A stretch of 64,000 nucleotides of DNA from an uncultured Planctomycetaceae bacterium (GCA_964472875.1 CAYYMD010000001.1:11505-75504), one strand, 5' to 3'; positions 32,417-63,407 are shown, counted from the stretch's first letter. Numbers and translations: made by a program. Notes: generated by a model not told the origin, from the sequence alone.

Positions 32417-32426
32417 TATTAAATCC

Positions 32427-34516: not shown

Positions 34517-34534
34517 ATTCTCTTCTACATTCGC

Positions 34535-35194: not shown

Positions 35195-35204
35195 GGTTTA
35201 CTCG

Positions 35205-38446: not shown

Positions 38447-38498
38447 AATATTTTACTTACTCTCCGCTACCTGCGTTCAACGCGGCGGTGCATCCGTG

Positions 38499-38870: not shown

Positions 38871-38960
38871 AAATACCTCGAATCTTTCCTTACAGTTATA
38901 TTTTTACAACCGCCCGTAGTCTCGGACAACTCGAATACGCGTATAGTACGGCTCCGACGG

Positions 38961-43328: not shown

Positions 43329-43381
43329 ATCTTTTAAGCTCCGCGTTTATGGTTAATTAACCTTACGCGCCTAATTAAACT

Positions 43382-46300: not shown

Positions 46301-47155
46301 TGTATGAAGTATCAGTGGATCATCTACCTTTTCGATCACCTCGATTTTTTTCTTATCGCCTGTCGCTATAGTGGTTCTGGCCTCGCCGACTTGGCCGCCG
46401 GGCGGGACAATTTCCTCGCCCGTGTCCGGGTCAACATAGCCCTCGACCAGGTGAGTTTCCGGCTGAAGCTTGTCGACCGGTATCTCTTTAGTGTCGTAGA
46501 ATGCGCGGATTATGGCCTCGGTGGTGCTGAACTTTTCGTCCATCGCCCGCAGATAGGTGGTTACCGGTATTTTACCGGACTGGTCTATCTTCATGGTGAG
46601 GACGTCTTTTTTACTCACCGCAAGCTCAATCCAGCTGCCGCGTTCGGGGATTATCCTGGCCCCGTGCAGCGGACGGTCGGACTCGGGCATGTCCACATTG
46701 AAGTCCACGCCGGGCGAGCGGTGCAGCTGCGATACTATCACCCGCTCGGCGCCGTTTATTATGAACTCTCCGCCGCCCATCATTATGGGCATTTCACCGA
46801 TGTATACTCCGTCCTCGACGACTTCTTCTTCGCCTTTTCTGTGCAGGCGACAGTGCACGCGCAGCGGCCGACCGTATGTCAGACGCAAATCGCGACATTC
46901 CTGATCGGTATATCGTGGTTCGTCCAGTTCGTAGTAGAGGTACTCCAGCTTGTTCTGCCCGTCATAGCTTTCTATAGGAAAGACTTCGCGCAGCAGCGCC
47001 TCCAGGCCGAGGTTCTTCCGCTTTGTCGGCTCGACGTCGAGCTGGAGAAAGCGGTTATAATTGGCCACCTGAATGTTGCTCAGGTTCGGTATAGGTGCAC
47101 CATCTCCGACCTTGGAAAAGTCCCGGACTTTTTCCATCTTCAACATAGTCTTCAT
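43382..47155 (-). CDS. rpoB: DNA-directed RNA polymerase subunit beta
   Basis: 1257 aa; rifampicin-cluster region [33 protein letters not shown]; C-terminal catalytic motifs. Confidence 0.97.
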
Positions 47156-47227
47156 TCCTTATATAGGCGCCTTCAAAGACGTATCGCGCCCACCCGATGC
47201 GCCGATCTCACCTTTGCTTCAGCCAGT

Positions 47228-47764
47228 CTACTTGACTTCGACTGTCGCGCCGGCTTCTTCAAGCGACTTTTTCGCCTCGTCGGCTTCTTCTTTGGCTATG
47301 CCTTCCCTGACAGGTTTGGGCACGCCTTCGACGAGTTCCTTGGCCTCTTTCAGGCCGAGGTTTGTCAGCGCCCGGACGGCTTTAATTACCTGTATCTTCT
47401 TGTCGCCAACGTCTTTAAGAACGACGTCAAATTCCGTTTGCTCTTCTTCTTCGCCGGCTTCTGCGCCTGCGGCCGCGCCGCCTGCGCCGGCCATCATTAC
47501 TGCTCCGCCTGCGGCCGGTTCTATGCCGTGTTCTTCCTTGAGATAATCCGCAAGGTCAACCGCCTGCTTTAGTGTAAGATCCGCTATCTTGTCGCCGAGG
47601 GTCTTTATCTCCTTGGCGAATTCTTTGGCGGGACCCGCCGCAGCTTCTTCTTTGGCTTCGGTGGCGGCTTCTTCGGCCTTTTCTTCTTTAGTTTCTTCCT
47701 CTTTGGCCTCTTCCTTTTTGGCCTGCTCTTCCTGCTTTTCTTCTTTTGCTTCTTGTTTAGCCAT
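47228..47764 (-). CDS. rplL: 50S ribosomal protein L7/L12 with ~45-aa K/E-rich N-terminal extension
   Basis: C-terminal domain [36 protein letters not shown]; N-terminal dimerisation region [23 protein letters not shown] preceded by [19 protein letters not shown]...; GGAG SD 10 nt upstream of ATG 47764 and no alternative internal start. Confidence 0.9.
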
Positions 47765-47902
47765 TATTTAAACTCCGTAATCTAAACGACCACGCCGGCC
47801 TGATAGGTGACCGCCCCTGTGGCGATCATTTAATCCCGACAAATCGGGACCAATCCGCAGCCGACACGAATTTTTCCATGTTTGTTTTTGAATACGATTA
47901 TC

Positions 47903-48448
47903 TCAGGCGGCCTGAGATTCGCCTTCCTGTTGTTCCATCGCTTTTAAAGCACCGCCCAGCGACCGGCCCGGACCGAGCATTGCGCCGCCTATGTTCGCCC
48001 CGGCCGACAGTATGCTCGTTACAACCTTGGCAACCGCCTCTTCGCGGGTGGGATAGTTGCTCAGTTCCTTGATTTGCTCGTCGCCTATGTAATCGGCGCC
48101 TTCGAGCATGGCCGCCTTAACCGTAAGCGCCGGCGACTCCTTGCCTATATCCAGCAGTTCGCGAACCATGGCCACCATGTCCATCTGCTGGGGGTCTTTG
48201 GGGTATGCAACGGCCGACGGACCTTCCAAAAGCGATGCGGCTTTATCGAGGCCTATGTCCTTGAAGGCCTGCCTGGCAAGAGAATTCTTCACCACCGTCA
48301 TGGCAATATTCTTCTCCTGCAGGCGAGCCCGCACTGCAGTAGTGGCCTTACCATCCAGTCCGGTAAAGCCCACCACCGCCAGCGACTCCAGACCTTCAAA
48401 CCGCTTCGCGAATTCTTTACGCATCAGTTTCTTTACGGGTTTGCTCAT
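47903..48448 (-). CDS. rplJ: 50S ribosomal protein L10
   Basis: Length, position and helical C-terminal L12-binding region consistent with L10. Confidence 0.9.
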   Translation of the reverse strand: MSKPVKKLMRKEFAKRFEGLESLAVVGFTGLDGKATTAVRARLQEKNIAMTVVKNSLARQAFKDIGLDKAASLLEGPSAVAYPKDPQQMDMVAMVRELLDIGKESPALTVKAAMLEGADYIGDEQIKELSNYPTREEAVAKVVTSILSAGANIGGAMLGPGRSLGGALKAMEQQEGESQAA

Positions 48449-48465
48449 TTTTTACACTTTCCGTT

Positions 48466-49149
48466 TCAGCGTATTTCCAGTTCCACCGAAGGAGACATTG
48501 TCGTGGACAGACACGCTCTTTTTATGTACATGCCCTTGGTTGTCTGCGGTCTCATTTTCTTTATCTGTGCGATAAAGTATTCGATATTCTCAACGAGCTT
48601 TTCGGTGGGAAAACTTGCTTTACCTACGACTACGTGCAAATTCCCGCCGTCGTCGTTACGGAATTCCACTTTACCGGCACTGTATTCCTTAACGCCCGTC
48701 GCCATATCTTCGGTCACTGTCCCGGCCTTGGGAGATGGCATCTTTCCCTGCGGGCCGAGAATTCTTCCCAGTTTCGATACCTTTTTCATCATAGCGGGCG
48801 TGGCCAGGGCAACGTCAAAATCAGTCCATCCGTCTTCAATCTTCTGTATAAGTTCATCTCCACCGGCTTCTGCGGCACCGGCACTTTTTGCCTGCTCGAC
48901 ATCCTGACCTTCGCAGAAGGCGATTACTGTGCGGCTTTTGCCAATTCCGTTCGGCAACGATATCGCACCTCGAAGCTGCTGATCACTTTGCTTGGGGTCA
49001 ATGCCCATTTGCATGGACAGTTCAACGCTTGCATCGAACTTGGCCGGCGGGAAGCTTTTTATCACTTCTACCGCCTCTTTGACGCCCTGCTTTTCTTCAG
49101 GCACCTTCTTTTGGCACTCTGCATATCTTTTACTTCGTTTGCTCGGCAT
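48466..49149 (-). CDS. rplA: 50S ribosomal protein L1
   Basis: KRSKRYAECQKKV...KFDASVELSMQMGIDPKQSDQQLRG. Confidence 0.95.
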   Translation of the reverse strand: MPSKRSKRYAECQKKVPEEKQGVKEAVEVIKSFPPAKFDASVELSMQMGIDPKQSDQQLRGAISLPNGIGKSRTVIAFCEGQDVEQAKSAGAAEAGGDELIQKIEDGWTDFDVALATPAMMKKVSKLGRILGPQGKMPSPKAGTVTEDMATGVKEYSAGKVEFRNDDGGNLHVVVGKASFPTEKLVENIEYFIAQIKKMRPQTTKGMYIKRACLSTTMSPSVELEIR

Positions 49150-49213
49150 ATCTGTTTCCTTTTAGGATTGCCTTCCACTGTTTTCGCCCGTGGTCAGGCC
49201 TTTGTTTTATCCG

Positions 49214-49636
49214 TTATTCCACCGTTATGCCCATACTACGTGCGGTACCTTCGATAATTTTGCAGGCCGCATCCGTATCCTGGGCATTTAGGTCTTTCAT
49301 TTTACGCTCCGCTATCTGGCGAACCTGGTCGGCTGTAACCGTAGCCACCTTTTCCTTGTTCGGCACGCCGGAGCCCTTGGCTATCTGCGCCGCCTCTTTC
49401 AGCAGCGCTGCGGCAGGGGGACTTTTGACGTGAAAAGTGAAGGTCCTGTCGCCGTATACGGTAATTTCAACTGTTACCGGCATCCCGCCAAGGTCCTTGG
49501 TCTGCTCGTTAAACTGGGACACGAACTGACCTATATTCACGTTATGCTGTCCCAGCGCGGGACCTATGGGCGGGGCCGGAGTCGCCTGACCACCCGGCGC
49601 CTGAAACTTAATTGTGGCTGCTACCTGCTTTGCCAT
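49214..49636 (-). CDS. rplK: 50S ribosomal protein L11
   Basis: [36 protein letters not shown]. Confidence 0.95.
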
Positions 49637-49709
49637 GTCATTTCTCGCTGATTATCTGAATTTAACGTCCCGCCATGCGGCGGTATACCCACTCGTCTCT
49701 GCGGATTGT

Positions 49710-50261
49710 TTAGGTCTTCTCGACCTGCCAGTACTCCAGTTCCACCGGAGTGGCCCGGCCGAATATCATCACTGTCACGCGTACAAGTCCCTTGTCTACA
49801 AGAACTTCGTCCACGGTCCCTTCGAAATTCTCGAAGGCGCCTTCTTTGATTTTCACCTGGTCGCCTTTGGCGAAATCCACGGCCACAGGAGCGCCTTCCT
49901 GGGCCTTCTCCACCTGCATGAGCATTTTCTGCACGTCTTCTTCCTTCATCGGGATCGGTTTCCCGGAAGTCCCGATAAAATCACCCACGCCGGTTGTTTC
50001 CCGGATAAGGAACCATGCCTTTTCGGGAATTCGCCCGTCTTCCTGCGGCTCCATTTCAATAAAGACATAACCGGGATATAGTTTTCGGTCCACGGTCTTG
50101 GCCGCGCCTCGGCCGCGTGGGGCCGGGCGACGCTCGGTGGGCACGAGAATCTGACCGATAGTATCCTCGAGCCCTTCTATCTTTACCTTGCGTTCCAGGG
50201 CATCGCGAACCTGGGATTCCTTGTTGGAAGCCACTCTCAATACGTACCATTGTTTAGCCAT
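49710..50261 (-). CDS. nusG: transcription termination/antitermination factor NusG
   Basis: MAKQWYVLRVASNKESQVRDALERKV NGN domain; C-terminal KOW GDQVKIKEGAFENFEGTV. Confidence 0.95.
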   Translation of the reverse strand: MAKQWYVLRVASNKESQVRDALERKVKIEGLEDTIGQILVPTERRPAPRGRGAAKTVDRKLYPGYVFIEMEPQEDGRIPEKAWFLIRETTGVGDFIGTSGKPIPMKEEDVQKMLMQVEKAQEGAPVAVDFAKGDQVKIKEGAFENFEGTVDEVLVDKGLVRVTVMIFGRATPVELEYWQVEKT

Positions 50262-50331
50262 GTAATTCTGCCTGTTTGAAACAACCGGCCAACTCTTTAA
50301 TTCGGGCGTGAAGCATAATTATTTTGTATTA

Positions 50332-50748
50332 TCATTTCGGCGGAGCCGGCATTACACCCGCCCACTGAAAGAAAATCTGAAAGATAAGATCCACCACGAA
50401 AAGTATTATGGCAAACATAAAGGTGGTAATAATAACCACTTTGGTAGATCCTATAACTTCCTTTCTGCTCGACCAGGAGACCTTTTTCATTTCGCTTTCA
50501 GTAGCGATTAGAAAGTCCGCCGTATTCTGCCGGTTTACCATCCAGAACATAAAGAGACCTGCCGCTATTACCAGCAGGGTGGGTATGCCGTAGCTCAGGT
50601 AAATACCGATACTCTCAAGGCCCCGGAGCTTATCGCCCAGAAGGCCACTGAGGCGGACGGCCCCTATCGTAATTATAACCATCACACCGATGAACGTGAT
50701 GATTCGCACGTATTTGCCCTGTCCTTGTTTGTATACGTTTAGTTTCAT
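50332..50748 (-). CDS. secE: preprotein translocase subunit SecE (three-TM form)
   Basis: 138 aa, three hydrophobic helices, conserved position between tRNA-Trp and nusG. Confidence 0.8.
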   Translation of the reverse strand: MKLNVYKQGQGKYVRIITFIGVMVIITIGAVRLSGLLGDKLRGLESIGIYLSYGIPTLLVIAAGLFMFWMVNRQNTADFLIATESEMKKVSWSSRKEVIGSTKVVIITTFMFAIILFVVDLIFQIFFQWAGVMPAPPK

Positions 50749-50875
50749 TAATCTTTAATGTTTGTTGGGCGAAACTAATCCGGACCTTTTAAGATTCTCT
50801 CTACACTCGCTTGTTCGACTTCGCCCTTTTCGCCGGCGATTTCATGCATCCTTCCCGCCCGCCACCAGGGCTCAA

Positions 50876-50948
<73 letters not shown>

Positions 50949-51031
50949 TTGCCGGGTGTTATTCTGGGGTTTTGCGTTATTAGTATTGCGTTGGAATACA
51001 GCAGACACAACCGAACAGCAAACGCCGGGGG

Positions 51032-51199
51032 TTATTTTCTTTTTATCTTGTGGCTGGTGTGCTTCCGCTCCCGCGGGCAATACTTGCTCAGTGTCAGCTT
51101 CGGCATCCCACCGAGCGTACGCACTTCGGTGCGATAGTTCAGGTCCTTGCACTCGCTGCACTGCAGCCACACATATTCTCTTGCTTTGGCTTTTGCCAT
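51032..51199 (-). CDS. rpmG: 50S ribosomal protein L33
   Basis: Hand translation gives MAKAKAREYVWLQCSECKDLNYRTEVRTLGGMPKLTLSKYCPRERKHTSHKIKRK (55 aa); below ORF-track size cut-off; classic position between tuf and tRNA-Trp/secE. Confidence 0.85.
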   Translation of the reverse strand: MAKAKAREYVWLQCSECKDLNYRTEVRTLGGMPKLTLSKYCPRERKHTSHKIKRK

Positions 51200-51232
51200 A
51201 TTCGGAAAGCGTTTTTCTGTTTTCTAAGTGTT

Positions 51233-52441
51233 CTACTCGAGTATCTTGGTCACAACGCCTGCGCCGACGGTCCTGCCGCCTTCGCGAATGGCGAATCGCA
51301 ACCCTTCTTCCATGGCGATGGAAGTATTCAAAAGCTGCACTTCCATGGTGATGTTATCGCCGGGCATGCACATTTCCGCGCCGCCGAGAAGTTTAATCGT
51401 ACCGGTAACATCGGTTGTACGGAAATAGAACTGCGGCCGGTATCCGGTGAAGAACGGCGTATGGCGGCCACCTTCTTCCTTGGTCAGCACGTACACCTCG
51501 CCCTCAAACTTATGGTGCGGGGTAATGCTGCCGGGCTTGGCCAGTACCTGGCCTCGTTCGAGATCTTCCTTCTCAACACCTCGCAGCAGACAACCGACGT
51601 TATCGCCGGCCTGCCCCTGCTCAAGGGTCTTATTGAACATTTCAACACCGGTCACCACGGTCTTACGCGTATCGCCGAGACCGACGATCTCAATCTCGTC
51701 GCCGACGTTGACCATGCCGCGTTCGATGCGGCCAGTGCCGACGGTTCCGCGACCCTTAATTGAGAACACATCCTCCACCGGCATCAGGAACGGTTTGTCG
51801 ACGTCCCTCTCCGGTTCGGGGACGTACTCATCCATCGCTTCGATGAGTTCCATTATGGGCTTGGCGGCTTCTTCGTCTTCCGGATTGTTAAGGGCATTCC
51901 AGGCAGAGCCCTTGATTACCGGGACATTATCACCGTCGAACTCGTACTTGTTCAGCAGCTCGCGAACCTCAAGCTCCACCAGTTCCAGCAGTTCCTCGTC
52001 GTCGACGAGGTCGCACTTGTTGAGGAACACCACCAGCGCGGGCACATTTACCTGCCTCGCCAGCAGAACGTGTTCGCGCGTCTGGGGCATCGGGCCATCG
52101 GCCGCCGATACCACCAGTATTGAACCGTCCATCTGGGCGGCGCCGGTGATCATGTTCTTGACGTAATCGGCGTGACCGGGACAGTCCACGTGCGCATAGT
52201 GGCGCTTCTGCGACTCGTATTCAACGTGCGCGGTGGCGATGGTCAGAATCTTGGTCTGGTCACGTCTGCCCTGAGATTCCGACGCTTTCGCTATATCGTC
52301 GTAACTTCTGAAACTGGACAATCCCTGTTTTTCCAGTACCTGCGTCATCGCCGCAGTCAGGGTGGTTTTACCGTGGTCCACGTGTCCGATGGTTCCGATA
52401 TTTACGTGCGGTTTAGTCCGTTGAAAGACTTCCTTGGCCAT
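51233..52441 (-). CDS. tuf: translation elongation factor Tu
   Basis: [31 protein letters not shown]...; 402 aa. Confidence 0.97.
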
Positions 52442-52562
52442 CAGTTATACTCCTTGTACGTTTGTTTCGCGACTTTTCGCTTTATTCCTTTTAACTTTAG
52501 TTTCCCGTTTAATTCTGTAATCGTCCTCGGCATGCCATTTAAAGACAAGGTCAGGCGACCCA

Positions 52563-52634
<72 letters not shown>

Positions 52635-52818: not shown

Positions 52819-54036
52819 TTATTGCGCAACTACGTTTGAGAGTTTGAACACCGGCAGAAGCAGCGCTATGGCTATGCCACCGACTATAAGCCCCATTATG
52901 ATTATCATAGCAGGTTCTATAAGAGATGTGATGGCCTTGACCGACACAGACAGTTCCTCCTCGCAGAAGTCCGCCGCCTTCTCCAGCACTCCGGACAGTC
53001 GGCCGGTGCGCTCCCCCGCGTCTATCATTTGAGTCAAGGTCCGTGGAACCAGTTCATATTCGAAGAGCCGCTCCGAAAGCGTCGAGCCGGTCTTGACCTG
53101 TTCGGACAGGTCCGTCCACATCTGTGAATAATAATAGTTACCCGAAACCTCCGCGGTAATCTGCAGCCCTTCCAGGATTCCCACATCCGTAGAAACCATC
53201 GTGGCCAAAGTACGCATGGATCTGGCAAGAGAGGCCTTCCGGTACATAGGTCCTATTATCGGCATGTTAATTTTAATCTTGTCCAGCAGGATGCTTCCTT
53301 TTTGCGACCTGAAGTACATGTAAACGCCTACTATTATGGCAGCTACCGCCGGAATAAGCAGATACCAGTAATCCGTCATGGCGTGGCTGATGTATAGAAG
53401 GATTTGTGTCGGTGCAGGCAAAACGGCGCCTTTGCCGCTGTAAATTTTCTCGAAACGAGGCAGCACCAGCGTCAGCAGCGCAATGATGACTATGGTACAG
53501 AAACTCAACATACATATCGGATACGTCATGGCGCCTTTTATCTGTTTGCGGGTCTTTCTCTCCGACTGCATGTACTGGCTGGCCCGCTGAAGCATCTGCC
53601 CCATTGTTCCCGAGGCCTCGGAGGCCCGCACCAAAGCAACGAAAAGTTTCCCGAACACTTTGGGATGACTCTCCATCGCCGAAGATAGTGTCTGCCCGGC
53701 CTTAACCTGCTCGGACAGGTCGCCGACCACCTCCGTAAGCTCCGGCTTGTCCGACTGCTGGGCGATGGCGTCCAACGCCTCATCCAGCGGGACTCCCGTA
53801 TCAACCATAACCGCCAGTTGGGTGGAAAAGAATATGACCTGGTCGCGCTTTATCTTTTTTCTTCGGCCAGTGGTACCGGTGGTGTCCGATGCCTGTTCTT
53901 GATGCGGGCGAATTGAAACTACGGACTTGCCCTCTCGCCTGAGCATACCGGCGGCTTCGTCCTTGTCCCTCGCGGCCAGGACACCGGCGTCCATTCTTCC
54001 TCCTCCCATACGTGCGTGATAAGCAAATTTAGGCAT
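52819..54036 (-). CDS. type II secretion / type IV pilus platform protein (GspF/PilC family)
   Basis: 405 aa inner-membrane protein with two T2SS-F repeats; adjacent to GspE/PilB ATPase. Confidence 0.85.
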   Translation of the reverse strand: MPKFAYHARMGGGRMDAGVLAARDKDEAAGMLRREGKSVVSIRPHQEQASDTTGTTGRRKKIKRDQVIFFSTQLAVMVDTGVPLDEALDAIAQQSDKPELTEVVGDLSEQVKAGQTLSSAMESHPKVFGKLFVALVRASEASGTMGQMLQRASQYMQSERKTRKQIKGAMTYPICMLSFCTIVIIALLTLVLPRFEKIYSGKGAVLPAPTQILLYISHAMTDYWYLLIPAVAAIIVGVYMYFRSQKGSILLDKIKINMPIIGPMYRKASLARSMRTLATMVSTDVGILEGLQITAEVSGNYYYSQMWTDLSEQVKTGSTLSERLFEYELVPRTLTQMIDAGERTGRLSGVLEKAADFCEEELSVSVKAITSLIEPAMIIIMGLIVGGIAIALLLPVFKLSNVVAQ

Positions 54037-54085: not shown

Positions 54086-55882
54086 CTAAGCCGCCGTGGC
54101 CCTGAATACCTCCTCCACAGTGGTTATACCGGCCGCTACTTTAGACATGCCGTCCTGTCGGAGAGTTACCATACCGCGTTCTATCGCAGCGGCCCGGATT
54201 TCGTCCCGCGTAGCCCCGGCATTGATTTTTTCAGTTATCTCGTCGTCCGGAACAAGCAGTTCGTAAATTCCTATTCGTCCTCCGTAACCGGTGCTGCGGC
54301 ATTTCTGGCATCCTGCGCCCCTGTAAAATTTTTCCACTTGCCCCACTTCCCGTTCGACTGCGCGTCGTATGCCCGCCGAGGGTTCGTAGGGCTCCTTGCA
54401 ATTGGTGCAGATTTTTCTGACCAGCCGCTGGGCCAGAACCGCCTCCGTGGAAGCGGCCACGAGGTAGGGCTCCACACCTATATTAACCAGGCGAGTGACC
54501 GCACCGGGCGCGTCGTTGGTGTGCATTGTGCTGAAGACCAGGTGACCCGTAAGCGCCGCCTGCACTGCAATCCGGGCCGTCTCTTCATCGCGTATCTCGC
54601 CCATCATTATAATGTCCGGGTCCTGTCGAAGCAGCGACCGCAGCGCCGAAGCGAACGAGAAACCGATACGCTCGTTAACCTGGAACTGGTTAACGCCGGT
54701 GAGATTGTATTCGACCGGGTCCTCCACAGTGCATATGTTCACCTGCTCGTTGCACAATTCATTAAGGACGCTGTAAAGGGTGGTGCTCTTGCCGCTTCCG
54801 GTCGGGCCGGTTACCAGGACAATTCCGTTGGGCACAGTTATCACCTTCCGCCAGGTCTTGAGCGTCTCATAGGCGAAACCGAGTTTCTCAAGATTCACGA
54901 GAACCCGGCGGTTGTCGATTATCCTGATGACCACTTTTTCGCCGTGCTGGCCGGGCATGGTGCTTACGCGCAGGTCGATAGGCCGGCTGTTCATCAGCAC
55001 GTGTATGCCGCCGTCCTGCGGCAAACGCCGCTCGGAGATATCCAGGCCCGCCATAATCTTAATCCGGCTGACAATAGCGGGAAGCATTTTGTAGGGTGGC
55101 TTCAGTTTCTCGAATAAAATACCATCCACCCTGTATCGCACGCGCAAAGAATTTTCATCCGGTTCGATATGTATGTCGGAAGCCCCCTCCCTGACGGCGT
55201 TGAACAGCAGATAATTTACCAGTTTGACCACCGGCGAACCTTCCGCCGCCGCCTCCAGGTCTGTTATGTCCTCTATCTTGTCTTCGACTATGGATACCTC
55301 ATCCGGCATCTCATCTTCGAATATATCGTCTATGACAAATACATTTGCCGAGGGAAGGTGAGTCTCCAGGGTGGCCTTTATATCGTTGCCGGTAGCGCAT
55401 ACCACCAGCACTTCACATCCGGTCAGACGAGCCACTTCTTCCATAAGGAATACATTGGCTGGCTCGTTAACGGCCAGTGAAAGGCGGTTTCTGACCTTGA
55501 ACAGCGGAAGTACAGTATGTTTGTCGAGAAATTCCCGGGGCAGCACATCGATAATTCTCGGGTCGGCCAGTCTTGGAGATATCCTGGCAAACGGAACGCC
55601 ATACCCAGCCGCCAGCGCCTGCATGATTTGCTCTTCGGTACATATCTCGAGTTTCTGAAGAACTTCGCCGAGCAGCAGATTACTTCCTGAATTTCGCTGA
55701 TAGTCCAGTGCCTCTGCGAGCTGCTCCTCGTTCAAGGTACCCTGCCTTATGAGCAACTGGCCCAGAGGCAGGGCGGACTTGGAGCCGGGACGCACTGGCC
55801 TGTTCGCTTCCTGAGAAGAACCCTCAGAAGCCACATGGACCTGCTCCGGGTCGGCGTTATTGTCTTCTGCTTTTGAAATCAT
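54086..55882 (-). CDS. type II secretion / type IV pilus assembly ATPase (GspE/PilB family) with N-terminal MshEN-like domain
   Basis: Walker A GPTGSGKST, Asp/His boxes, Zn tetracysteine CTNC...CQKC; N-terminal T2SSE_N with tandem LGxxLIxxGxLxxxxLxxALxxQ-like motifs. Confidence 0.9.
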   Translation of the reverse strand: MISKAEDNNADPEQVHVASEGSSQEANRPVRPGSKSALPLGQLLIRQGTLNEEQLAEALDYQRNSGSNLLLGEVLQKLEICTEEQIMQALAAGYGVPFARISPRLADPRIIDVLPREFLDKHTVLPLFKVRNRLSLAVNEPANVFLMEEVARLTGCEVLVVCATGNDIKATLETHLPSANVFVIDDIFEDEMPDEVSIVEDKIEDITDLEAAAEGSPVVKLVNYLLFNAVREGASDIHIEPDENSLRVRYRVDGILFEKLKPPYKMLPAIVSRIKIMAGLDISERRLPQDGGIHVLMNSRPIDLRVSTMPGQHGEKVVIRIIDNRRVLVNLEKLGFAYETLKTWRKVITVPNGIVLVTGPTGSGKSTTLYSVLNELCNEQVNICTVEDPVEYNLTGVNQFQVNERIGFSFASALRSLLRQDPDIIMMGEIRDEETARIAVQAALTGHLVFSTMHTNDAPGAVTRLVNIGVEPYLVAASTEAVLAQRLVRKICTNCKEPYEPSAGIRRAVEREVGQVEKFYRGAGCQKCRSTGYGGRIGIYELLVPDDEITEKINAGATRDEIRAAAIERGMVTLRQDGMSKVAAGITTVEEVFRATAA

Positions 55883-55950: not shown

Positions 55951-56334
55951 TCACGTCGGCAAGCGCTCTTTAATCGCCTCCTCGCTGTTTTTATAGGTCT
56001 CAAAGGCCGAATCCAGTCGCGTGATTTCAAGTATCTTGCTTATGTTCTCATCACATCCGCACAACCTGAGGCGTCCCATGCGTTCGGCCAGTGTGTCCTG
56101 CAGGTCCAGAAAATATTCCAGCGCCGCACTATCAATGGCAGGAACGTTATGGAGATCCAGAACTATGTCGATTATCCACGGCTCTGCTCCGGCATTTTCC
56201 GGCGAAGATTGCCCCCTATCCTCCTCCAGTTGATGTTCGACCGTTCGGATAAGCTGTTCCAGCGAATCCTCGGTAAGCTCTCCTTTAATGGAAAGTATGG
56301 CCGCATGACCATATGTCTCTGTAGTTATGTTCAT
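55951..56334 (-). CDS. STAS-domain protein (anti-sigma-factor antagonist-like)
   Basis: SpoIIAA-like fold; HNVPAIDSAALEYFLDL motif; 4-nt overlap with upstream HD-GYP gene stop. Confidence 0.75.
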   Translation of the reverse strand: MNITTETYGHAAILSIKGELTEDSLEQLIRTVEHQLEEDRGQSSPENAGAEPWIIDIVLDLHNVPAIDSAALEYFLDLQDTLAERMGRLRLCGCDENISKILEITRLDSAFETYKNSEEAIKERLPT

Positions 56335-58022
56335 ATTTCACTCTCCGAGGCAGCACCAGCTATTCCCTCCAGTTCACACGGAGCCCCTGAGCCGATTTTA
56401 AAGGAACTTCTTCGGCCGATATTGCTGACGAATTCGCTCAAATCTATTGAAAGCAGCCTTTCGGCCAGGGCCGGGTCGAACTGTGTGCCCGCATGGCTTT
56501 TTATTTCTTCTATGGCCTCTTCCAGCGGAAGTGCTTTGCGATAGGTTCTGTCGGTAATCATCGCATCGAGACAATCCGCCAGACCTACAATCCTGCCCTC
56601 TATGGGTATCTGTTCTCCGGCCAGTTGCCGGGGGTATCCTTTGCCGTCAGGACGTTCGTGGTGTGTCAAAATTCCCCTGGCCACGCCCCGCCATTGGCGA
56701 AAACCACCAATGATTTTGGCGCCGGTGACGGGATGCTGTTTAATCTTTTCGAATTCGGCTCTGCTCAGTCGGTTCGTCTTTCGCAGCGTCTCTTCGGGCA
56801 CTCCAATCTTTCCTATGTCGTGCAGCAGCCCGGCGAGATAAACCTGCTTTACCTTCTCAGCATCCAGGCCGGATTCTTCGGCCAGCCGTTTGGATATAAG
56901 CGCCACTCGCTGTGAATGGCCGCTGGTGTACGGATCCTTGGCGTCAATCGAGGCAGTCAGCGCGTGCAGTACGCCTATAAGCAAATCCTGCAGGTCGGCA
57001 TAAAGCATGCTGTTGGCCAGGAACACGCCGGTCTGATTGGCAATGGAACTGAGCAACTGGAGGTCGGCGCTGTTAAAGTCGCCGGATAGTTTTTCGGCAC
57101 CTATTAACAACCCGACCTGTCTGTCCTCAGCAACAATAGGCACGGCCACCAAACCGCGCCTGGGTTCTTCGACGCCCTGGGCCGTTGGTATAGGAAACTG
57201 ATTATCCAGTAAAACGCGACGGCCTGAATCCATTCTCCGGTTTATCTCCTCCGCCAATCGCAGTATTTTTTCATCGGAGACCTTTTCCTGACCTGCCCTG
57301 ACCACCATGTTTTCTTCCCGTCGCTGTCGCTGGGGGTGAACAACAGCCCACGCGGCCGATATGTTCATTACCTCCAGCAGTTCGTTACATGCGTTCTGAA
57401 GGAAATCCCCTACCTGCTGGGTCACCTTTATGGAACCGCTTATTCTATATACCAGCGATAGTTCTTCATAAGTTCTGGCCAGGTTGGTGCTCATCGTGGC
57501 CAGTTCATCATCGGCGATTTGTTCGTTTAGCAGGTGCTCCAGCAGCCAACCCAATATACTGATGATATGTTCGGCCTGGGATGCGCTGTGTCGGCAGTAT
57601 TTTTCGGCGGCATTTCTGGTCGCCTGGCGGTCAAGATGGAGATGATCGCACATTCGCGAAAAATGTTCTTCTTCAAGAATTTCAAGGGGCGGGAAACACG
57701 CCACCACCGCGCCGGCTATACGTCTTCGCCGACGGACAGGCACGCCCAGCTGAAAACAGCCCGTCCGGCATTGATTTATGATGTTATTTCGCTGGGCCAT
57801 CGCCTTTTCAGCGACATCCTGAGCGCTTTGCCTGCAGGGCGCTTCGGCGCCGAGCATGAAGCGGCAGAACCTGCCGGAGGGACAGAAACCTTCTGCGCAT
57901 CTGCCGGTTTCGTCCCATGTCGAAAGATGCAGGCCCAACCGCTCCATGCGGGCGCGTAGCTCCTCGGCTACCGCTTTGGGAAGCGGTAGAATCCTCTGTG
58001 AGGCCGTTTCCAGTCTACTCAT
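56331..58022 (-). CDS. multi-domain HD-GYP c-di-GMP phosphodiesterase (Cys-rich N-terminal region + GAF + HD-GYP)
   Basis: HD-GYP signature LHDIGKIGVPEE...HHERPDGKGYP; preceding GAF-like domain; N-terminal CxxxCPSGRFCRF...CRQ...CRTGC. ORF is open to 58223 but ATG at ~58022 (MSRLETAS) overlaps the receiver stop as ATGA. Confidence 0.8.
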   Translation of the reverse strand: MSRLETASQRILPLPKAVAEELRARMERLGLHLSTWDETGRCAEGFCPSGRFCRFMLGAEAPCRQSAQDVAEKAMAQRNNIINQCRTGCFQLGVPVRRRRRIAGAVVACFPPLEILEEEHFSRMCDHLHLDRQATRNAAEKYCRHSASQAEHIISILGWLLEHLLNEQIADDELATMSTNLARTYEELSLVYRISGSIKVTQQVGDFLQNACNELLEVMNISAAWAVVHPQRQRREENMVVRAGQEKVSDEKILRLAEEINRRMDSGRRVLLDNQFPIPTAQGVEEPRRGLVAVPIVAEDRQVGLLIGAEKLSGDFNSADLQLLSSIANQTGVFLANSMLYADLQDLLIGVLHALTASIDAKDPYTSGHSQRVALISKRLAEESGLDAEKVKQVYLAGLLHDIGKIGVPEETLRKTNRLSRAEFEKIKQHPVTGAKIIGGFRQWRGVARGILTHHERPDGKGYPRQLAGEQIPIEGRIVGLADCLDAMITDRTYRKALPLEEAIEEIKSHAGTQFDPALAERLLSIDLSEFVSNIGRRSSFKIGSGAPCELEGIAGAASESEI

Positions 58023-58429
58023 GCTCCCTCCGCAATTTTTTTGACACCGGCTGTAATAAGTTCGTCGACCTTCCCAAGTACCTGGCGTGGCGAGAACGGT
58101 TTGGCCAGGACCCCCACAATGCCGGCGGCTGTCATTTCCGCCGGCTCGAGGTCGAAACCGCGTGCGGTAAGCATAATAGCCGGTATCCCCTCCGTGCGTT
58201 GTTCGGCTCGCAGACGCTGGCAAAGTTCCAAACCGGTAATCACCGGCATCTGGTAATCGGTGATAATAAGGTTCGGCCGCTGTTCCCGGGCCAGTTCAAG
58301 CGCTTCCTCACCATCTACGGCCGTGAGCACATCGTAACCGGCATTTTTTAGCTTTAGCGAAAGAACGTTGAGAATGTGGGATTCATCATCGGCGATTAAT
58401 ACTTTTCCGCGGTTATGCGACATATTCAT
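58019..58429 (-). CDS. stand-alone response-regulator receiver domain protein (CheY-like)
   Basis: DDESHIL...LIITDYQMP (phospho-Asp), MLTAR, LAKPF; no output domain. Confidence 0.85.
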   Translation of the reverse strand: MNMSHNRGKVLIADDESHILNVLSLKLKNAGYDVLTAVDGEEALELAREQRPNLIITDYQMPVITGLELCQRLRAEQRTEGIPAIMLTARGFDLEPAEMTAAGIVGVLAKPFSPRQVLGKVDELITAGVKKIAEGA

Positions 58430-58520: not shown

Positions 58521-59963
58521 TTACTTGGTAAGTGGAAGTTCGAATGCAAACGTGCTTCCTTCGCCTTCTTTGCTGGCCACATCCAGTTTGCCGTTGTGAA
58601 CCGTCTCGATAATACGCTTTACGAGGGCCAGGCCCAGACCGGTGCCCTTGGCAACCTTTGTGCCTGCCCCGACGCGATAGAACTTGTCGAACACATGCGG
58701 CAGGTCGTCGGCGGAGATACCCATGCCGGTGTCGCGGACCTCGCAACGCACAATACTTGTACGTTCGTCCACCTCGACGGTGACAGCAACCTTCCCGCCA
58801 TTCGGGGTATACTTGACCGCGTTGGACACCAGATTCATCACCGCCTGGTAGATTAAATCATGATCGGCCTCGACCTGGTAATAAACCGGCGCCAGGGAGT
58901 GCTCTATGGTGATATCCTTGGCTCTGGCCTGAACTCCGGCCACATCCAGCACCTGCTTTACGATACCGGCAAGACTCATAGGTTTTCTGGCGACCTTTAT
59001 AACGCCCGATTCTATGCGAGAGATATTCAGTATGTTTTCTATGAGGCGGTGGAGACGGTTCGTCTCGGTGGAAATAATCTCGTAAAATTCCTGCTGCGTT
59101 TGCTTGTCCTGCGCCTCGTCGTCCAGCAGCATTTCTATATAGGCCTTGATGGAGGCCAGCGGCGTTTTCAGTTCGTGCGAGACATGCGATACGAAGTCGG
59201 TTTTCATATCAGCTATTTCTTTCTCGTGCGTGATGTCGTGAAGCACCGCAACCACACCGGAAATCTCATCGTCGGGCGTGACGACGCATCCCAGCGTGGC
59301 GTTGAAGGTCCGCTGTTTACCATCAACCGTTATCGTGTGTTCGACCTGCTTGCGGTCGACATGTTCGCCATGACTGCGGACATCGCAGATAAGATCAACC
59401 AGTCTACTGTCAGACAAAACCTCGGAGATATTGCGACGGTGATCGCGGGAAAAATCGAATCCCAGCAGTTTTTCGGCGGCCTCGTTGGCCAGCAGCAACT
59501 CGTCGAAACGGTTGGTCACAATCACTGCGTCGGAAATAGAGAATATAATGGCTTCGGTGTTTCTCTTTTCCCCAGAAATTATTCTGCGTTGCAGCTGCAG
59601 GTCGCGGTTTTCGGCCTCCAGTCGTTCTATCCTCGTTTTCACCGAATCGAGAAACTCGTTAAGCGACCTGGTAATCTGGGCGGGCTGACCGAAAGGATAA
59701 GTCCCCGTCAGATGCACTCGCCCGCTTCTGGTCATTTCGCGCAGTTGCGAGGATATCTGCGAAATTGTCCTGTAGAAATTCTGCCTGAACACAAACAGCG
59801 TCAGAAGCGCTACCCCCAGCACGAGCCCCAGCAGTGCGTGATTTATCGAATCATCGAGGCCCCAGTTGCTCTGCACCACCCTCATGCAGGCATAACTTGC
59901 CACGCCCGCTCCTATCGATAGCAGAATCTTTCCCACCAGCGGAGTGCTTTTAGTAAGCGTCAT
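58521..59963 (-). CDS. membrane-anchored PAS-domain sensor histidine kinase
   Basis: Two N-terminal TM helices; PAS segment; H-box FVSHVSHELKTPL; N/G-boxes NLVSNAVKYT, DTGMGI, GTGLGLALV. Confidence 0.9.
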   Translation of the reverse strand: MTLTKSTPLVGKILLSIGAGVASYACMRVVQSNWGLDDSINHALLGLVLGVALLTLFVFRQNFYRTISQISSQLREMTRSGRVHLTGTYPFGQPAQITRSLNEFLDSVKTRIERLEAENRDLQLQRRIISGEKRNTEAIIFSISDAVIVTNRFDELLLANEAAEKLLGFDFSRDHRRNISEVLSDSRLVDLICDVRSHGEHVDRKQVEHTITVDGKQRTFNATLGCVVTPDDEISGVVAVLHDITHEKEIADMKTDFVSHVSHELKTPLASIKAYIEMLLDDEAQDKQTQQEFYEIISTETNRLHRLIENILNISRIESGVIKVARKPMSLAGIVKQVLDVAGVQARAKDITIEHSLAPVYYQVEADHDLIYQAVMNLVSNAVKYTPNGGKVAVTVEVDERTSIVRCEVRDTGMGISADDLPHVFDKFYRVGAGTKVAKGTGLGLALVKRIIETVHNGKLDVASKEGEGSTFAFELPLTK

Positions 59964-60010: not shown

Positions 60011-61246
60011 TTATCGGCCGCCCAACGGCGCCATAGAAACCTCCTGCGACGAAGCTGCGGCATCGTCGTCCTGACGCAGTTTATCGAGCAACGCGCGGGC
60101 AAGTTTGCTGTCGGGGTCGATTTCGAGTGCCTTGGCGTAACACCTGGCCGCCTCAGCCCGCTCATCCCTGGCCGTATTCACCATACCAAGCAGACACAAA
60201 AGGGGCGCATCGGGTTCCCCAAGAGCCAAGGTTCTGTTGAGCACCTCGTCGGCCTGCGAGACACGGTCGGTCTTCAAGAGTGCATAGCCGAGCAACATAG
60301 CGGCATTGCTGTTTGCAGGTTTTTTTGACAGCGCCTTCCTTGTAGAGACAACAACACCTTCCAAATCGCCGCAGGCCAGTTCAGCCCTCGCCAGTTTCTC
60401 GTAGAGTTTGGCGCTGTCCCCTCTCTTTTTGACCGCTTTTTGGTAAGCGTTGCGGGCCTTGATGGGTTCGCCTGTGGCCATGTGACAATCGCCGAGCATC
60501 GCGAACACCCATGCCGGAGAATCCGCACTGGCGGCCAGTTCGTCAAGATGGCGCCTCGCTTCCTCATAACGGCCGGAAAGATATTCCGCCTTGGCCAGTG
60601 CCCGCAGATAACCCACATTTTCAGGGTCGAGATCGCAGGCCTGACTGTAGTATTCGGCTGCGGAATCGTATTCATCGCGCATCATTGCAATGCGGCCGCC
60701 AAGCTCGTACATGGAGGGGTCGTCATCGGCCTGCGATATATGGCTCTCCACCTGCAACTGCGCTTCACGGATGCGTCCCATCGCCACCAGAACCTCCGTA
60801 ACTGCATGCACGGCGTCCATATTGCGGTTATCCAATGCATAGGCCTGGCGGTAACTGTGAATTGCCTGTTGAAGGTTATCCGCTTTTTCCTGTGCAACGC
60901 CGAGGAGATACCATACCCGCGCAGAATTCGGCCGGTTGCTTTTTACCTGTTCAAACTGTTCTATCGCCTCTTGATAGCGGCCCTGTTCGATGCAGACTTT
61001 ACCCAGCAACATCCTTGCGTCTACAAAGTTCTCATCCAGTGCCAACGCACGAGCGGCATTGCTGTGGGCCTGGTCCAGTTCGCCGACCTTCAGATGCTCC
61101 TTGGCCACCTTGAAAACCACTTCTGCCCGGGCTTTGTGCCACTTTTCGTATACTTCCTTCTTATTGTCCTTTTTGAACAAAGCGACGTTTTGGCATCCTG
61201 ATGTCACTGCAAGGATTACTGCCGCCGCTATTATATATTTTTTCAT
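60011..61246 (-). CDS. TPR-repeat lipoprotein (PilF/PilW-like candidate secretin pilotin/assembly factor)
   Basis: Signal + lipobox AVTSGC; ~9 TPR repeats across 411 aa; sits between the secretin and sensor kinase genes. Confidence 0.6.
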   Translation of the reverse strand: MKKYIIAAAVILAVTSGCQNVALFKKDNKKEVYEKWHKARAEVVFKVAKEHLKVGELDQAHSNAARALALDENFVDARMLLGKVCIEQGRYQEAIEQFEQVKSNRPNSARVWYLLGVAQEKADNLQQAIHSYRQAYALDNRNMDAVHAVTEVLVAMGRIREAQLQVESHISQADDDPSMYELGGRIAMMRDEYDSAAEYYSQACDLDPENVGYLRALAKAEYLSGRYEEARRHLDELAASADSPAWVFAMLGDCHMATGEPIKARNAYQKAVKKRGDSAKLYEKLARAELACGDLEGVVVSTRKALSKKPANSNAAMLLGYALLKTDRVSQADEVLNRTLALGEPDAPLLCLLGMVNTARDERAEAARCYAKALEIDPDSKLARALLDKLRQDDDAAASSQEVSMAPLGGR

Positions 61247-61340: not shown

Positions 61341-63407
61341 CTATTCTTGCTTGCCGGACTGGCTCATCTGGCCGGTATTTTTCGCCTCATCCTGTCCGGC
61401 ATTGTTGCTCTTGCCGGCCGGTGTGTCTGTTCGGCCTTGCGGCCGCGGCTTCATATCCGGACGTTTCGGTCCTGGAAGAGGATCAACATACCTCTTCTGG
61501 AAACCGAAAGTATCCCTGACTTTCTTATCTTTAATCATGCCCGCATCACGTGGACGATTCGGAGGAACTACTCGAGGATAAGGTTTGCCGAGATCGTGCA
61601 TCATAATGTGTTTGATTAGATATTTGATGCTGGAGTGGCGAAACTCATCCGCCCAGTACGCCTGTTCTGTAAGACGTTCTTTCAGGCGGACCGCCTGTAT
61701 CATCCTCGGCTCCAGTGACAGGGCGTTATCCACATACCACAGGGCCTCCTGCGGCCTTCCGGCCCGCATCGCCTTTCTTGCCTTGCGCATGTAGCCCTGA
61801 GCGATGCGCTCGCGGGCCCACCACTGGACACCCTTGCGGCTGCCGATGTAATAACGGTAAACGTTGCCTTTCATCTGTTCTCCGACCGCTTCGGCGGCGT
61901 CCTGCTTGATTATGTGCGGGGTGATAAGGACGATTATTTCTCTTCGGGTAGTTTCATCCTTTGTACCGCGGAAGGCGGCGCCAAGGTATGGCACATCACC
62001 AAGCATGGGTATCTGGTTGCGACTCGTTGTTGTCTTTTCGCGGAACAGCCCGCCTATTACTATGGTCCTTCCGTCACGAACCATAACGTTGGAGGTCACT
62101 TCCGTGGTCTCCTCACTGGGCAGGGCCAGTTCACCCTGAACCTGCACGCTGCCTATTGAATCTTCGGGGTGGAGCTCCATCCGGACGTAGCCGTCCTTGC
62201 CCACGTAAGGCCTGACCACCAGCCGCGTGCCCGTTTCCAAGAATTCGACGGTCTGCGTGGCTGTGGTTTCGGTTATAGTCGTGGTTATGTAGCCGTCGCG
62301 GTTGCCGACCATCACCTCGCCCCGCTGCTTGTTGACCACGAGTATTTTTGGATTGGCCAGAACAGTAACGTCCGTTACGGACTCCAGCGCTCGAACGAAA
62401 AATGACACGTCATTGCTGAGAAAGCCAATGCTGACACCGCCCTCGGGTACTATGCCCGAGAAATCCGTTCCAACCTGACCGGCCCGGACTCCGCGTAGAG
62501 CGTCGCTTTCGAGGCCGCCGGTGGTCATGTCGCCGATCCCGCCGTTGCTCGTGGCCGAGCCGATGCTCTGGAAGTCGATGCCGGCCAGCGTATTCATGTC
62601 TATGCCGAGATAGTTTTTCTCGGTGAGCTTGGCGCTAAGAATGGTGGCCTCTATGAGCACCTGTTCTGGTTTGACGTCGAGGCGCTGCACGATTTTGCGG
62701 ACTTTCTCGATATTCTCCTTGTAATCACGGACAACCAGGACGTCATCGGTCGCGTAGGAGTTGCCGCCGGCCTCAGTGTCCGAGGTCTCGATGCCCATCT
62801 CAGCTTCCGGAGTAAGCGCTATGGCGCCCTGGTCCGAGAGAACCGGCTCTATAAGCGTCTTGGCGTCCTTGGCGGTAACGTATGAAAGGTGGAAAACCTC
62901 CACGGAGACCTTTCTTTGGGCCTTGCGGATCTCCTGGAGTTGTTCGGGCGTATATACGTAAATGAAATTTCCCTTCTCTACGTAAACGTATCCGGTGGAT
63001 TTAAGGACCGCCTCCAGGGCCTCATCGAACGTCACGCCGTAAAGGTCAGCCGTAACCTCGCCGGCAACCTCTTTGGTGGCGATTATATTCTTGCGTCCCT
63101 GCGTGCTGAGCATCTGTAATACGCCGCGAAGGTCCGCTCCCTGGACGTGTATTTCGAAAGTGCCCGGCCGGGTCATCTTTACAGGGCCGCTTTGTTCACC
63201 GGCCGGCTTGGCGGCGCCGGCGCTGTCATCCCCCTCGGCGGGGCCTGTGGTAGTCGTTTGGCCACCATCCGAAAATAGCCGTCCCAGAAAGGTGTCTTCT
63301 CCCGGGGCGACACCCGCAGATATAAATACAACCAGGACCGCTGCCACCGCAATCCGGGCACCAATGCCCTTGAATCCATTCATTTTTAAACTCCTCTTAT
63401 TTTTCAT
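61341..63407 (-). CDS. secretin (GspD/PilQ family) with ~190-aa C-terminal extension
   Basis: N0/secretin_N domains (ATKEVAGEVTADLYGVTFDEALEAVL), secretin core (VLIEATILSAKLTEK...GDVPYLGAAFRGT..EIIVLITPHII), then extra C-terminal region with TPR-like segment. Confidence 0.9.
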   Translation of the reverse strand: MKNKRSLKMNGFKGIGARIAVAAVLVVFISAGVAPGEDTFLGRLFSDGGQTTTTGPAEGDDSAGAAKPAGEQSGPVKMTRPGTFEIHVQGADLRGVLQMLSTQGRKNIIATKEVAGEVTADLYGVTFDEALEAVLKSTGYVYVEKGNFIYVYTPEQLQEIRKAQRKVSVEVFHLSYVTAKDAKTLIEPVLSDQGAIALTPEAEMGIETSDTEAGGNSYATDDVLVVRDYKENIEKVRKIVQRLDVKPEQVLIEATILSAKLTEKNYLGIDMNTLAGIDFQSIGSATSNGGIGDMTTGGLESDALRGVRAGQVGTDFSGIVPEGGVSIGFLSNDVSFFVRALESVTDVTVLANPKILVVNKQRGEVMVGNRDGYITTTITETTATQTVEFLETGTRLVVRPYVGKDGYVRMELHPEDSIGSVQVQGELALPSEETTEVTSNVMVRDGRTIVIGGLFREKTTTSRNQIPMLGDVPYLGAAFRGTKDETTRREIIVLITPHIIKQDAAEAVGEQMKGNVYRYYIGSRKGVQWWARERIAQGYMRKARKAMRAGRPQEALWYVDNALSLEPRMIQAVRLKERLTEQAYWADEFRHSSIKYLIKHIMMHDLGKPYPRVVPPNRPRDAGMIKDKKVRDTFGFQKRYVDPLPGPKRPDMKPRPQGRTDTPAGKSNNAGQDEAKNTGQMSQSGKQE

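Follow-up and report, generated by a model that had tools for sequence, protein, structure and literature searches.

Introduction

In the RpfC/RpfG system of Xanthomonas, a phosphorylated receiver governs an HD-GYP domain, and the output includes type IV pili. In RpfG the receiver and the HD-GYP domain lie on one polypeptide, and the system further includes the kinase RpfC (HisKA-HATPase-REC-HPt) and genes for synthesis of the diffusible signal factor (DSF). RpfG acts partly through complexes with GGDEF and PilZ adaptor proteins that contact the pilus ATPases PilT and PilU (PMC3749722). Here, a stretch of DNA of 64,000 nucleotides (nt) from an uncultured Planctomycetaceae bacterium (GCA_964472875.1 CAYYMD010000001.1:11505-75504), referred to as the window, was analysed. 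It carries a four-gene signalling cassette for a sensor kinase, a stand-alone receiver (REC), a PocR-GAF-HD-GYP protein and a STAS protein, and a sequence-only reading of the same DNA had described its receiver and HD-GYP protein as a split RpfG-like module. Comparison with orthologous loci shows the cassette to be an integral and conserved part of the type IVa pilus operon of Phycisphaerae (Planctomycetota). This context, which is the decisive one, was missing from the sequence-only reading.

Several other systems are related to parts of the cassette. In Xanthomonas, PilB is regulated by an adaptor, PilZ, which links PilB to the degenerate cyclic di-GMP (c-di-GMP) enzyme FimX (PMC8389850). 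STAS or STAS-like proteins (HsbA, BgrV and SiaC) activate diguanylate cyclases through direct binding (PMC8457831). In the HsbA-HsbD, BgrV-BgrR and SiaC-SiaD pairs, the small STAS or STAS-like protein has a phosphorylatable Ser and is encoded with the c-di-GMP enzyme, and a kinase and a phosphatase come along. Small alcohols or diols have been proposed as ligands of PocR sensor domains. A PocR domain followed by a signalling helix (S-helix) and then an output domain is a described syntax (PMC1592074). MshE of V. cholerae and PilB of M. xanthus are ATPases that are regulated through an N-terminal MshEN domain.

Planctomycetota, notably Phycisphaerae, are abundant in sediments, soils and bioreactors. 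To our knowledge, almost nothing is known about the regulation of surface organelles in this phylum, and a literature search on HD-GYP, STAS, c-di-GMP and pili in Planctomycetes and Phycisphaerae found no relevant account of the cassette.

Results and discussion

The cassette in the type IVa pilus operon

All cassette genes are on the minus strand, and the gene order in the window is PilQ, TPR lipoprotein, PAS kinase, REC, HD-GYP, STAS, PilB and PilC. No name or accession is on record for the REC, HD-GYP and STAS proteins of the window.

58019..58429, minus strand: stand-alone receiver (REC), a single-domain response regulator of 136 amino acids; Response_reg only in Pfam
56331..58022, minus strand: PocR / S-helix / GAF / HD-GYP protein of 563 amino acids, predicted from its Pfam domains to be a cyclic-dinucleotide phosphodiesterase
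55951..56334, minus strand: single-domain STAS protein of 127 amino acids, SpoIIAA-like (PF01740, E 1.8e-15)
58521..59963, minus strand: sensor histidine kinase, PhoR/WalK/PnpS-like, with two N-terminal hydrophobic segments followed by PAS, HisKA and HATPase_c
61341..63407, minus strand: PilQ-like secretin, whose gene opens the part of the cluster that lies in the window (Pfam Secretin, Secretin_N and STN)
60011..61246, minus strand: TPR lipoprotein, a PilF/Tgl-like candidate pilotin matching many TPR families
54086..55882, minus strand: PilB, type IVa pilus extension ATPase with an MshEN-type N-domain (Pfam MshEN and T2SSE)
52819..54036, minus strand: PilC platform protein (T2SSF; PF00482, E 3.6e-57)

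The extension ATPase was assigned as PilB from its similarity to solved PilB proteins, including a full-length match to Geobacter PilB (5zfr; residues 36-598, E 3.2e-160), and from the pilM/N/O/Q/C neighbourhood. In longer orthologous contigs, genes for pseudopilins and PilM/N/O stand 5' of the secretin gene. The gene for the TPR lipoprotein, whose N-terminus MKKYIIAAAVILAVTSGC resembles a lipobox by eye, is kept between the secretin and kinase genes in orthologous loci. A consensus scan found no terminator in the coding-strand intergenic gaps of the cluster, which fits co-transcription, though weakly.

More than 120 full-length orthologues of the HD-GYP protein were recovered, mostly from Phycisphaerae, and those homologues that carry names are annotated as Phycisphaerae. 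When contigs were scanned with the full-length alignment (HD-GYP-derived patterns), most matches were other, unrelated HD-GYP proteins, and only about 7 were true full-length orthologues. Metagenomes scanned with just the N-terminal half aligned (pattern NL[ATS][TSR]TYEEL) gave 76 specific loci, which together with those found earlier make 72 non-redundant loci. The order secretin, TPR, histidine kinase, REC, HD-GYP, STAS, PilB, (PilT-like), PilC recurs in these 72, as far as the contigs reach; a few loci have no detectable STAS or PilB gene after the HD-GYP gene. Planctomycetota that are less closely related also have the cassette, either in this order or rearranged. In L023 the order is REC, HD-GYP, histidine kinase, STAS, PilB, and in L054 it is REC, histidine kinase, STAS, PilB, and the HD-GYP gene is divergently oriented. 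Each of the parts is a member of a known family. Their arrangement, a free receiver, a PocR-GAF-HD-GYP protein and a STAS protein encoded between pilQ/TPR and pilB, sometimes with a REC fusion or insertion of a degenerate GGDEF protein, was not found described in the literature searched.

In many orthologous clusters an additional PilT-like ATPase (~353 amino acids) is encoded between PilB and PilC, e.g. at L082 13771-14832; the window lacks it.

Gene junctions

58019..58022, minus strand: ATGA stop/start overlap between the REC and HD-GYP genes, read from the sequence
56331..56334, minus strand: ATGA stop/start overlap between the HD-GYP and STAS genes, read from the sequence
58024..58031, minus strand: Shine-Dalgarno-like GGAGGGAG for the HD-GYP gene within the final REC codons, read from the sequence

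The plus strand reads TCAT at both 58019-58022 and 56331-56334, and this corresponds to ATGA on the coding strand. The REC stop TGA and the HD-GYP start ATG thus overlap, and the ATG of the STAS gene shares 4 nt with the HD-GYP stop, both as the sequence-only reading had it; what that reading observed was borne out in every detail. Among 69 orthologous loci, 19 have a gap of -4 nt between the REC and HD-GYP genes, 13 have one of -1 nt and 30 one of +2 to +10 nt, and the gap falls within -4 to +10 nt in 62 of the 69. The HD-GYP and STAS genes overlap by exactly 4 nt in 41 of 49 loci. Judged by these counts, the recurrence of tight junctions goes beyond chance, and the HD-GYP/STAS overlap is better conserved than the exact ATGA between REC and HD-GYP. 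The ATGA coupling of the latter pair, on which the sequence-only reading placed weight, is thus present in the window and shared in its exact form by a minority of loci, though nearly all gaps are at most 10 nt. The stoichiometric coupling of the two products that it also claimed is an inference.

It had further been noted that the HD-GYP frame is open upstream of the ATG in a frame other than that of the receiver, and that a true start there would undermine the split. The frame does stay open for 201 nt 5' of the ATG, to a TTG at 58223 (630-residue open reading frame). The TTG was rejected as a start, and the extension is considered unused because the public gene call for the identical protein has 563 residues and 29 orthologues start within a few residues of the Met encoded by the ATG. 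The ATG is preceded by a strong Shine-Dalgarno-like site, and the additional 67 codons encode an Arg/Gly-rich stretch in the overlap frame that is absent from the 29 orthologues. The same observations bear on the suspicion that the split itself is an artefact, i.e. a recent frameshift or an assembly error in a fused REC-HD-GYP gene or a mis-called start at 58223. The open frame and the existence of fused orthologues elsewhere would fit such an error. It is, however, refuted by the comparative data, since the genes are separate, with varied short gaps or overlaps, in 69 independent loci, and the identical arrangement is found in an independent assembly of the same organism. An artefact is therefore regarded as extremely improbable.

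The receiver and the sensor kinase

Only Response_reg was found by Pfam in the receiver (residues 10-121, E 1.7e-25), which bears out the claim that it has no output domain. Residues D14/D15, D58, T88 and K110 are conserved at >=90% among 67 orthologues, and the window receiver has an intact phospho-acceptor pocket, as expected of an RpfG-type regulator.

The kinase gene is immediately 5' of the REC gene in nearly all orthologous loci that reach that far. The kinase has PAS (residues 137-244), HisKA (253-320) and HATPase_c (367-479) domains. Its best NCBIfam matches are PnpS, WalK and PhoR, all under their cut-offs, and no HPt or REC domain was found in it by Pfam and NCBIfam scans. It is presumed to be the phosphodonor for the receiver.

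Fused relatives and comparison with RpfG

A profile of the PocR-like domain was compared with 1.84 billion representative proteins and gave 86 matches. Three of the proteins, P0149 (707 amino acids), P0164 (651) and P0166 (709), have Response_reg at residues 5-116 followed by the PocR-like, GAF and HD-GYP domains. They are encoded at L162 1109-3232, L163 119-2074 and L164 10001-12130, respectively, and each of the three contigs has the REC and HD-GYP parts in frame within a single open reading frame. Over 125 residues, the REC part of P0164 shares 57% identity with the window REC, and over 517 residues the remainder of P0164 shares 40% identity with the window HD-GYP protein. The P0149 gene adjoins a pilin gene. 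That for P0166 stands at the end of a cluster encoding PilB, PilC, PilM/N/O and pilins, with no kinase or STAS gene close by in L164. In a fourth protein, P0157, the N-terminal part resembles a degenerate pseudo-receiver.

Because the two parts occur as in-frame fusions in three proteins, and because the REC and HD-GYP genes stay adjacent when the kinase gene moves (L023), the free receiver most likely acts on the HD-GYP protein, and the two would work together. To this extent the description as a split RpfG-like module holds: there are three independent fusions and the genes are adjacent in 69 loci. It does not hold as an assignment to the RpfG/RpfC system. In the window, REC and HD-GYP are encoded by two genes that overlap by 4 nt in different frames, and Pfam finds only PocR, GAF and HD_5 in the HD-GYP protein, which, as previously stated, lacks a REC domain and brings PocR and GAF sensors of its own. 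The kinase is a simple one of the PAS type and is not a hybrid with HPt and REC domains like RpfC, and no rpfF-like or other DSF synthesis gene is present in the cluster. The adaptor-sized protein encoded beside the pilus motor is STAS and not PilZ, and the neighbouring motor is PilB and not PilT or PilU. The module therefore resembles an RpfG-type regulator in its predicted operation but lies outside the RpfG family, as its REC is unfused, its kinase is PhoR/WalK-like and the DSF genes are absent. The likeness extends to the parts through which RpfG acts, since cassettes related to that of the window have a gene for a degenerate GGDEF protein in addition to the STAS protein beside PilB.

The PocR domain and the signalling helix

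The HD-GYP protein comprises the following segments.

57522..57935, minus strand: PocR sensory domain, residues 30-167, with conserved Cys53, Cys63, Cys89, Cys109 and Cys125
57423..57584, minus strand: long signalling helix joining PocR and GAF, with the family signature NLxxTYEELSL(L/V)Y
57018..57413, minus strand: GAF domain, residues 204-335 (GAF_2, E 4.7e-11)
56466..56948, minus strand: HD-GYP catalytic domain, residues 359-519 (HD_5, PF13487, E 2.7e-40, 138 bits)

The sequence-only reading had listed a number of N-terminal cysteines, all of which are present, and had suggested that this segment be compared with known domains including PocR. The segment matches Pfam PocR (PF10114) with 41.9 bits against a cut-off of 23.9, with residues 30-167 aligned to profile positions 20-160 of 162. 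The domain is divergent, and Pfam matches it at E <= 0.01 in 20 of 30 family members. No significant PDB match for the region was obtained by sequence profile (the best, at E 0.065, is spurious) and no solved PocR structure was found. In an AlphaFold model of residues 25-229 with a predicted local distance difference test score (pLDDT) of 80, a beta-alpha-alpha-beta-beta-beta core is followed by helices, one of them very long. The PocR region is thus predicted to have the PAS/GAF-like alpha/beta fold.

C53, C63, C89, C109 and C125 are conserved at >=90% in the HD-GYP protein family. They were aligned with canonical PocR proteins recovered by the profile search, namely P0170 (PocR-GAF-kinase), P0177 (PocR-GAF-GAF-HD-GYP), P0186 (PocR-GAF-PP2C), P0189 (scanned over its PocR-like N-terminus only) and P0194. 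The canonical signature cysteines lie in FC, C-x2-S and C(H/R)aGL (P0170, P0177, P0186 and P0194). Window C53 and C63 align with the cysteines of FC and C-x2-S, a general hallmark of PocR that the family shares, together with the fold, with Salmonella PocR, MtaR, the PocR-GAF kinases and P0177. The Cys of C(H/R)aGL aligns with window C85; the Phycisphaerae family keeps C89 instead, four residues on. C109 and C125 are restricted to this family, which is very divergent from canonical PocR and has these two conserved cysteines in addition. A metal or redox role of the cysteines, as raised in the sequence-only reading, is possible. The question concerns PocR as a whole because the Cys signature is general to the PocR family, and the PocR-GAF-HD-GYP architecture is not unique to the window protein.

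Residues ~147-200 form a single helix in the structure model. The signature NLxxTYEELSL(L/V)Y is the most conserved non-catalytic motif of the HD-GYP protein family, and the linker between PocR and GAF fits the signalling helix syntax described previously (PMC1592074). The GAF domain that had been recognised after the Cys-rich segment was located by Pfam at residues 204-335.

The HD-GYP domain

H369, H401-D402, H430, H454-H455, D483 and the HHERPDGKGYP motif (G460-G462-Y463-P464) are invariant in 30 orthologues. The domain thus has the HD dyad, the other His/Asp ligands and the HHExxDGxGYP motif that define the HD-GYP family. The closest solved structures are PmGH of Persephonella marina (4mcw, E 7.5e-40), V-cGAP3 (5z7c, E 3.6e-39) and PA4781 (4r8z). 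PmGH hydrolyses c-di-GMP. The metal-ligand residues of the window domain align with those of PmGH, which has the same HD and HHExxDGxGYP motifs. The match spans the end of GAF and HD-GYP, with the window GAF aligning, from residue 289 on, to the N-domain of PmGH, which is GAF-like. Unlike PmGH, the window protein has an additional N-terminal PocR domain and signalling helix. The position of the third-metal Glu of PmGH, E185, is occupied by Tyr365, which is invariant in the family (motif DPYTSGHS) and is also found in V-cGAP3. The Glu of a trinuclear site is therefore missing, and a binuclear site is predicted.

From these comparisons, the HD-GYP domain most likely hydrolyses c-di-GMP. This substrate is likely but not certain, because V-cGAP3, a phosphodiesterase specific for 3'3'-cyclic GMP-AMP (3'3'-cGAMP), shares the Tyr variant and matches nearly as well.

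The STAS protein

The STAS gene is the immediate 5' neighbour of pilB, also in rearranged loci. Its product matches PF01740 with 57 bits and TIGR00377 with 53.2 bits, slightly below the cut-off of 53.45. The Asp68-Ser69 motif, known from SpoIIAA-type proteins that can be phosphorylated, is kept in 47 orthologues, and the protein thus combines the STAS fold with a phosphorylatable-type Ser. In this, and in being encoded with a predicted c-di-GMP enzyme, it is like HsbA, BgrV and SiaC. The known partners of those proteins are diguanylate cyclases, whereas the partner of the window protein would be the HD-GYP phosphodiesterase and/or PilB, and the kinase and phosphatase that accompany HsbA, BgrV and SiaC have no counterpart in the cluster. 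No STAS partner for an HD-GYP enzyme or PilB was found in the literature searched.

At residues ~37-50 the window STAS protein has an insert of ~13 residues (EEDRGQSSPENAG...) that is missing from nearly all of 46 aligned orthologues. A GAF + SpoIIE (PP2C) gene lies at 16222..17475 on the plus strand of the window, ~40 kb from the cassette, and may encode a phosphatase for STAS-type proteins.

PilB and the GGDEF-carrying relatives

Two 24-residue tandem copies of a motif spaced by ~5 residues characterise MshEN, and the relaxed form of the motif is [RKPN]hGxxhhxx[GAS]hhxxxxhxxxhxx[QNKRYWST] (PMC5013675). In the window PilB (residues ~38-95), motif I, PLGQLLIRQGTLNEEQLAEALDYQ, fails at one position, and most orthologues have Q in place of R/K as the first residue. 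Motif II, LLGEVLQKLEICTEEQIMQALAAG, departs from the relaxed form at five positions, and 7 residues separate the two motifs. Similarly degenerate motifs are found in ~40 PilB orthologues. The window PilB thus shares an MshEN-type N-domain with MshE of V. cholerae and PilB of M. xanthus but falls short of the motifs of an MshEN c-di-GMP receptor, and direct binding of c-di-GMP by PilB of the window lineage is doubtful.

Three loci from more distant Phycisphaerae/Planctomycetota include a gene for a transmembrane GAF-GGDEF protein between the HD-GYP and STAS genes (L059 10794-12379, L071 11103-12700 and L078 10968-12820). Its GGDEF signature is degenerate (SDERF or ADDRF) and the RxxD site is kept. 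The STAS gene of L071 starts within the stop of the gene before it. In L078 the end of the STAS gene and the start of pilB share 4 nt, and in L059 STAS and PilB are separated by 15 nt. PilB of L059, L071 and L078 has canonical MshEN motifs, e.g. KLGQILLDEGLVTEDDLRRALEAQ-SKDNK-RLGEQLIDLGVLSPQAMISALAKQ. The motif expression matched once or twice in these GGDEF-carrying relatives, versus no match in the window PilB and most orthologues. Because the GGDEF-carrying loci keep a canonical MshEN PilB, the cassette is clearly linked, in the wider group, to control of PilB of the c-di-GMP type.

A simple route from HD-GYP through c-di-GMP to the MshEN domain of PilB is unsupported by the motif test in the window lineage and is one possibility only. 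A protein relay through STAS to PilB is a reasonable alternative. It would recall the control of Xanthomonas PilB through PilZ and FimX, although the window cluster has no gene for a homologue of PilZ or FimX.

Proposed role of the cassette

Overall, the findings are best explained if the cassette, built into the pilus operon, tunes PilB-driven assembly of the pilus, and this is considered fairly probable. The membrane-anchored PAS histidine kinase would phosphorylate the neighbouring single-domain receiver. Co-produced with the PocR-GAF-HD-GYP protein, the receiver would act on it in trans, by contact like that of the attached REC domain of the fused orthologues and of RpfG-type regulators. 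The HD-GYP domain, with its complete binuclear-type metal site, would most likely cleave c-di-GMP. PocR, with its Cys triad and PAS/GAF-like fold, and GAF may provide a second, cytoplasmic input through the long signalling helix. The STAS protein, whose gene is translationally coupled to that of the HD-GYP protein, is most likely an adaptor through which the module's state is relayed to PilB, the extension ATPase, and pilus assembly would be tuned in this way.

Several points weigh against this proposal. It rests on sequence comparison, and adjacency in an operon would also be expected if the receiver had the pilus machinery itself as its target. The fused orthologues lack adjacent kinase and STAS genes, and the four genes therefore need not be one obligate unit. 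The phosphodiesterase route to PilB through c-di-GMP lacks support in the window lineage because the MshEN motifs are degenerate. No kinase (HATPase_c_2) or PP2C phosphatase for the STAS Ser was found in the cluster, either in the window or in orthologous loci. Finally, V-cGAP3, which cleaves 3'3'-cGAMP, resembles the HD-GYP domain almost as closely as the c-di-GMP enzymes do, which makes the substrate uncertain.

Two other explanations have to be weighed against the proposed tuning of PilB through the receiver and the HD-GYP protein. In the first, these two proteins would be independent of each other, with REC as the output of the kinase on pilus proteins, like PilG, PilH or CheY, and HD-GYP as a separate enzyme gated by PocR and GAF. 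Single-domain receivers commonly bind motors directly, the REC gene adjoins the kinase gene as well as the HD-GYP gene, and the ATGA overlap is found in only 19 of 69 loci. The three in-frame REC + PocR-like + GAF + HD-GYP fusions and the adjacency that survives relocation of the kinase in L023 argue in the opposite direction, and independence of the two proteins is thus considered unlikely.

The other explanation concerns the activity of HD-GYP, which might degrade another cyclic dinucleotide, such as 3'3'-cGAMP, or be mainly a scaffold whose GYP surface binds partners in the way RpfG binds GGDEF proteins. The match to V-cGAP3, including the common PYTxGHS variant, and the decay of the c-di-GMP motifs in PilB of the window lineage would be accommodated. 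RpfG controls pili via protein contacts that are independent of c-di-GMP turnover by its partners (PMC3749722), and the degenerate GGDEF protein encoded in related cassettes could be a partner for a scaffold. However, the invariant catalytic ligands argue for an active enzyme, the best structural relative is the c-di-GMP-hydrolysing PmGH, and the relatives neighboured by GGDEF retain a canonical MshEN PilB. A function other than cleavage of c-di-GMP is accordingly judged improbable.

A bolder version of the proposal would be that, in the window lineage, a protein relay (kinase, free receiver, HD-GYP, STAS and PilB) has replaced direct binding of c-di-GMP by PilB and that the PocR Cys triad is a metal or redox input. 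This is speculative and rather doubtful. If true, it would explain why MshEN has decayed in the window lineage versus the canonical motifs in sister cassettes that retain GGDEF, and it would provide the first phosphodiesterase and pilus motor under the control of a STAS protein.

Current concepts stand, and the cassette extends the known logic of c-di-GMP and pili to a new lineage with the parts newly arranged. Such a regulator is unsurprising in principle, yet it is widespread and cleanly testable, and may inform on HD-GYP regulation, PocR function and pilus control. Embedded in a type IV pilus operon across the phylum, it supplies concrete genes for experiments. The split and fused forms make up a natural pair for studying receiver control of an HD-GYP domain, and PilB proteins with canonical and decayed MshEN motifs offer a natural contrast. 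The STAS protein is a candidate for the first that works with a c-di-GMP phosphodiesterase or PilB, and the family of HD-GYP proteins is compact enough for probing the conserved cysteines of the PocR domain.

Neighbouring genes in the window

The pilus cluster adjoins a block of core translation and transcription genes on the minus strand (20435..52634). Directly 3' of pilC are tRNA-Thr (52563-52634), tuf (51233..52441) and tRNA-Trp (50876-50948). Open reading frames of rpoB/rpoC size at 43382..47155 and 38961..43328, called from their size alone, are apparently next, and secY (24604..26175), adk, map and rpoA are located farther along. An MlaD/MlaF/MlaE-like ABC lipid-transport gene set is at 5246..8296 on the same strand. 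Genes for a NifU-like scaffold (250..1107), a class-V aminotransferase/cysteine desulfurase (1126..2328) and a small HD-domain protein (2379..3158) lie on the plus strand, and this iron-sulfur assembly context (250..3158) is unrelated to the cassette as far as checked.

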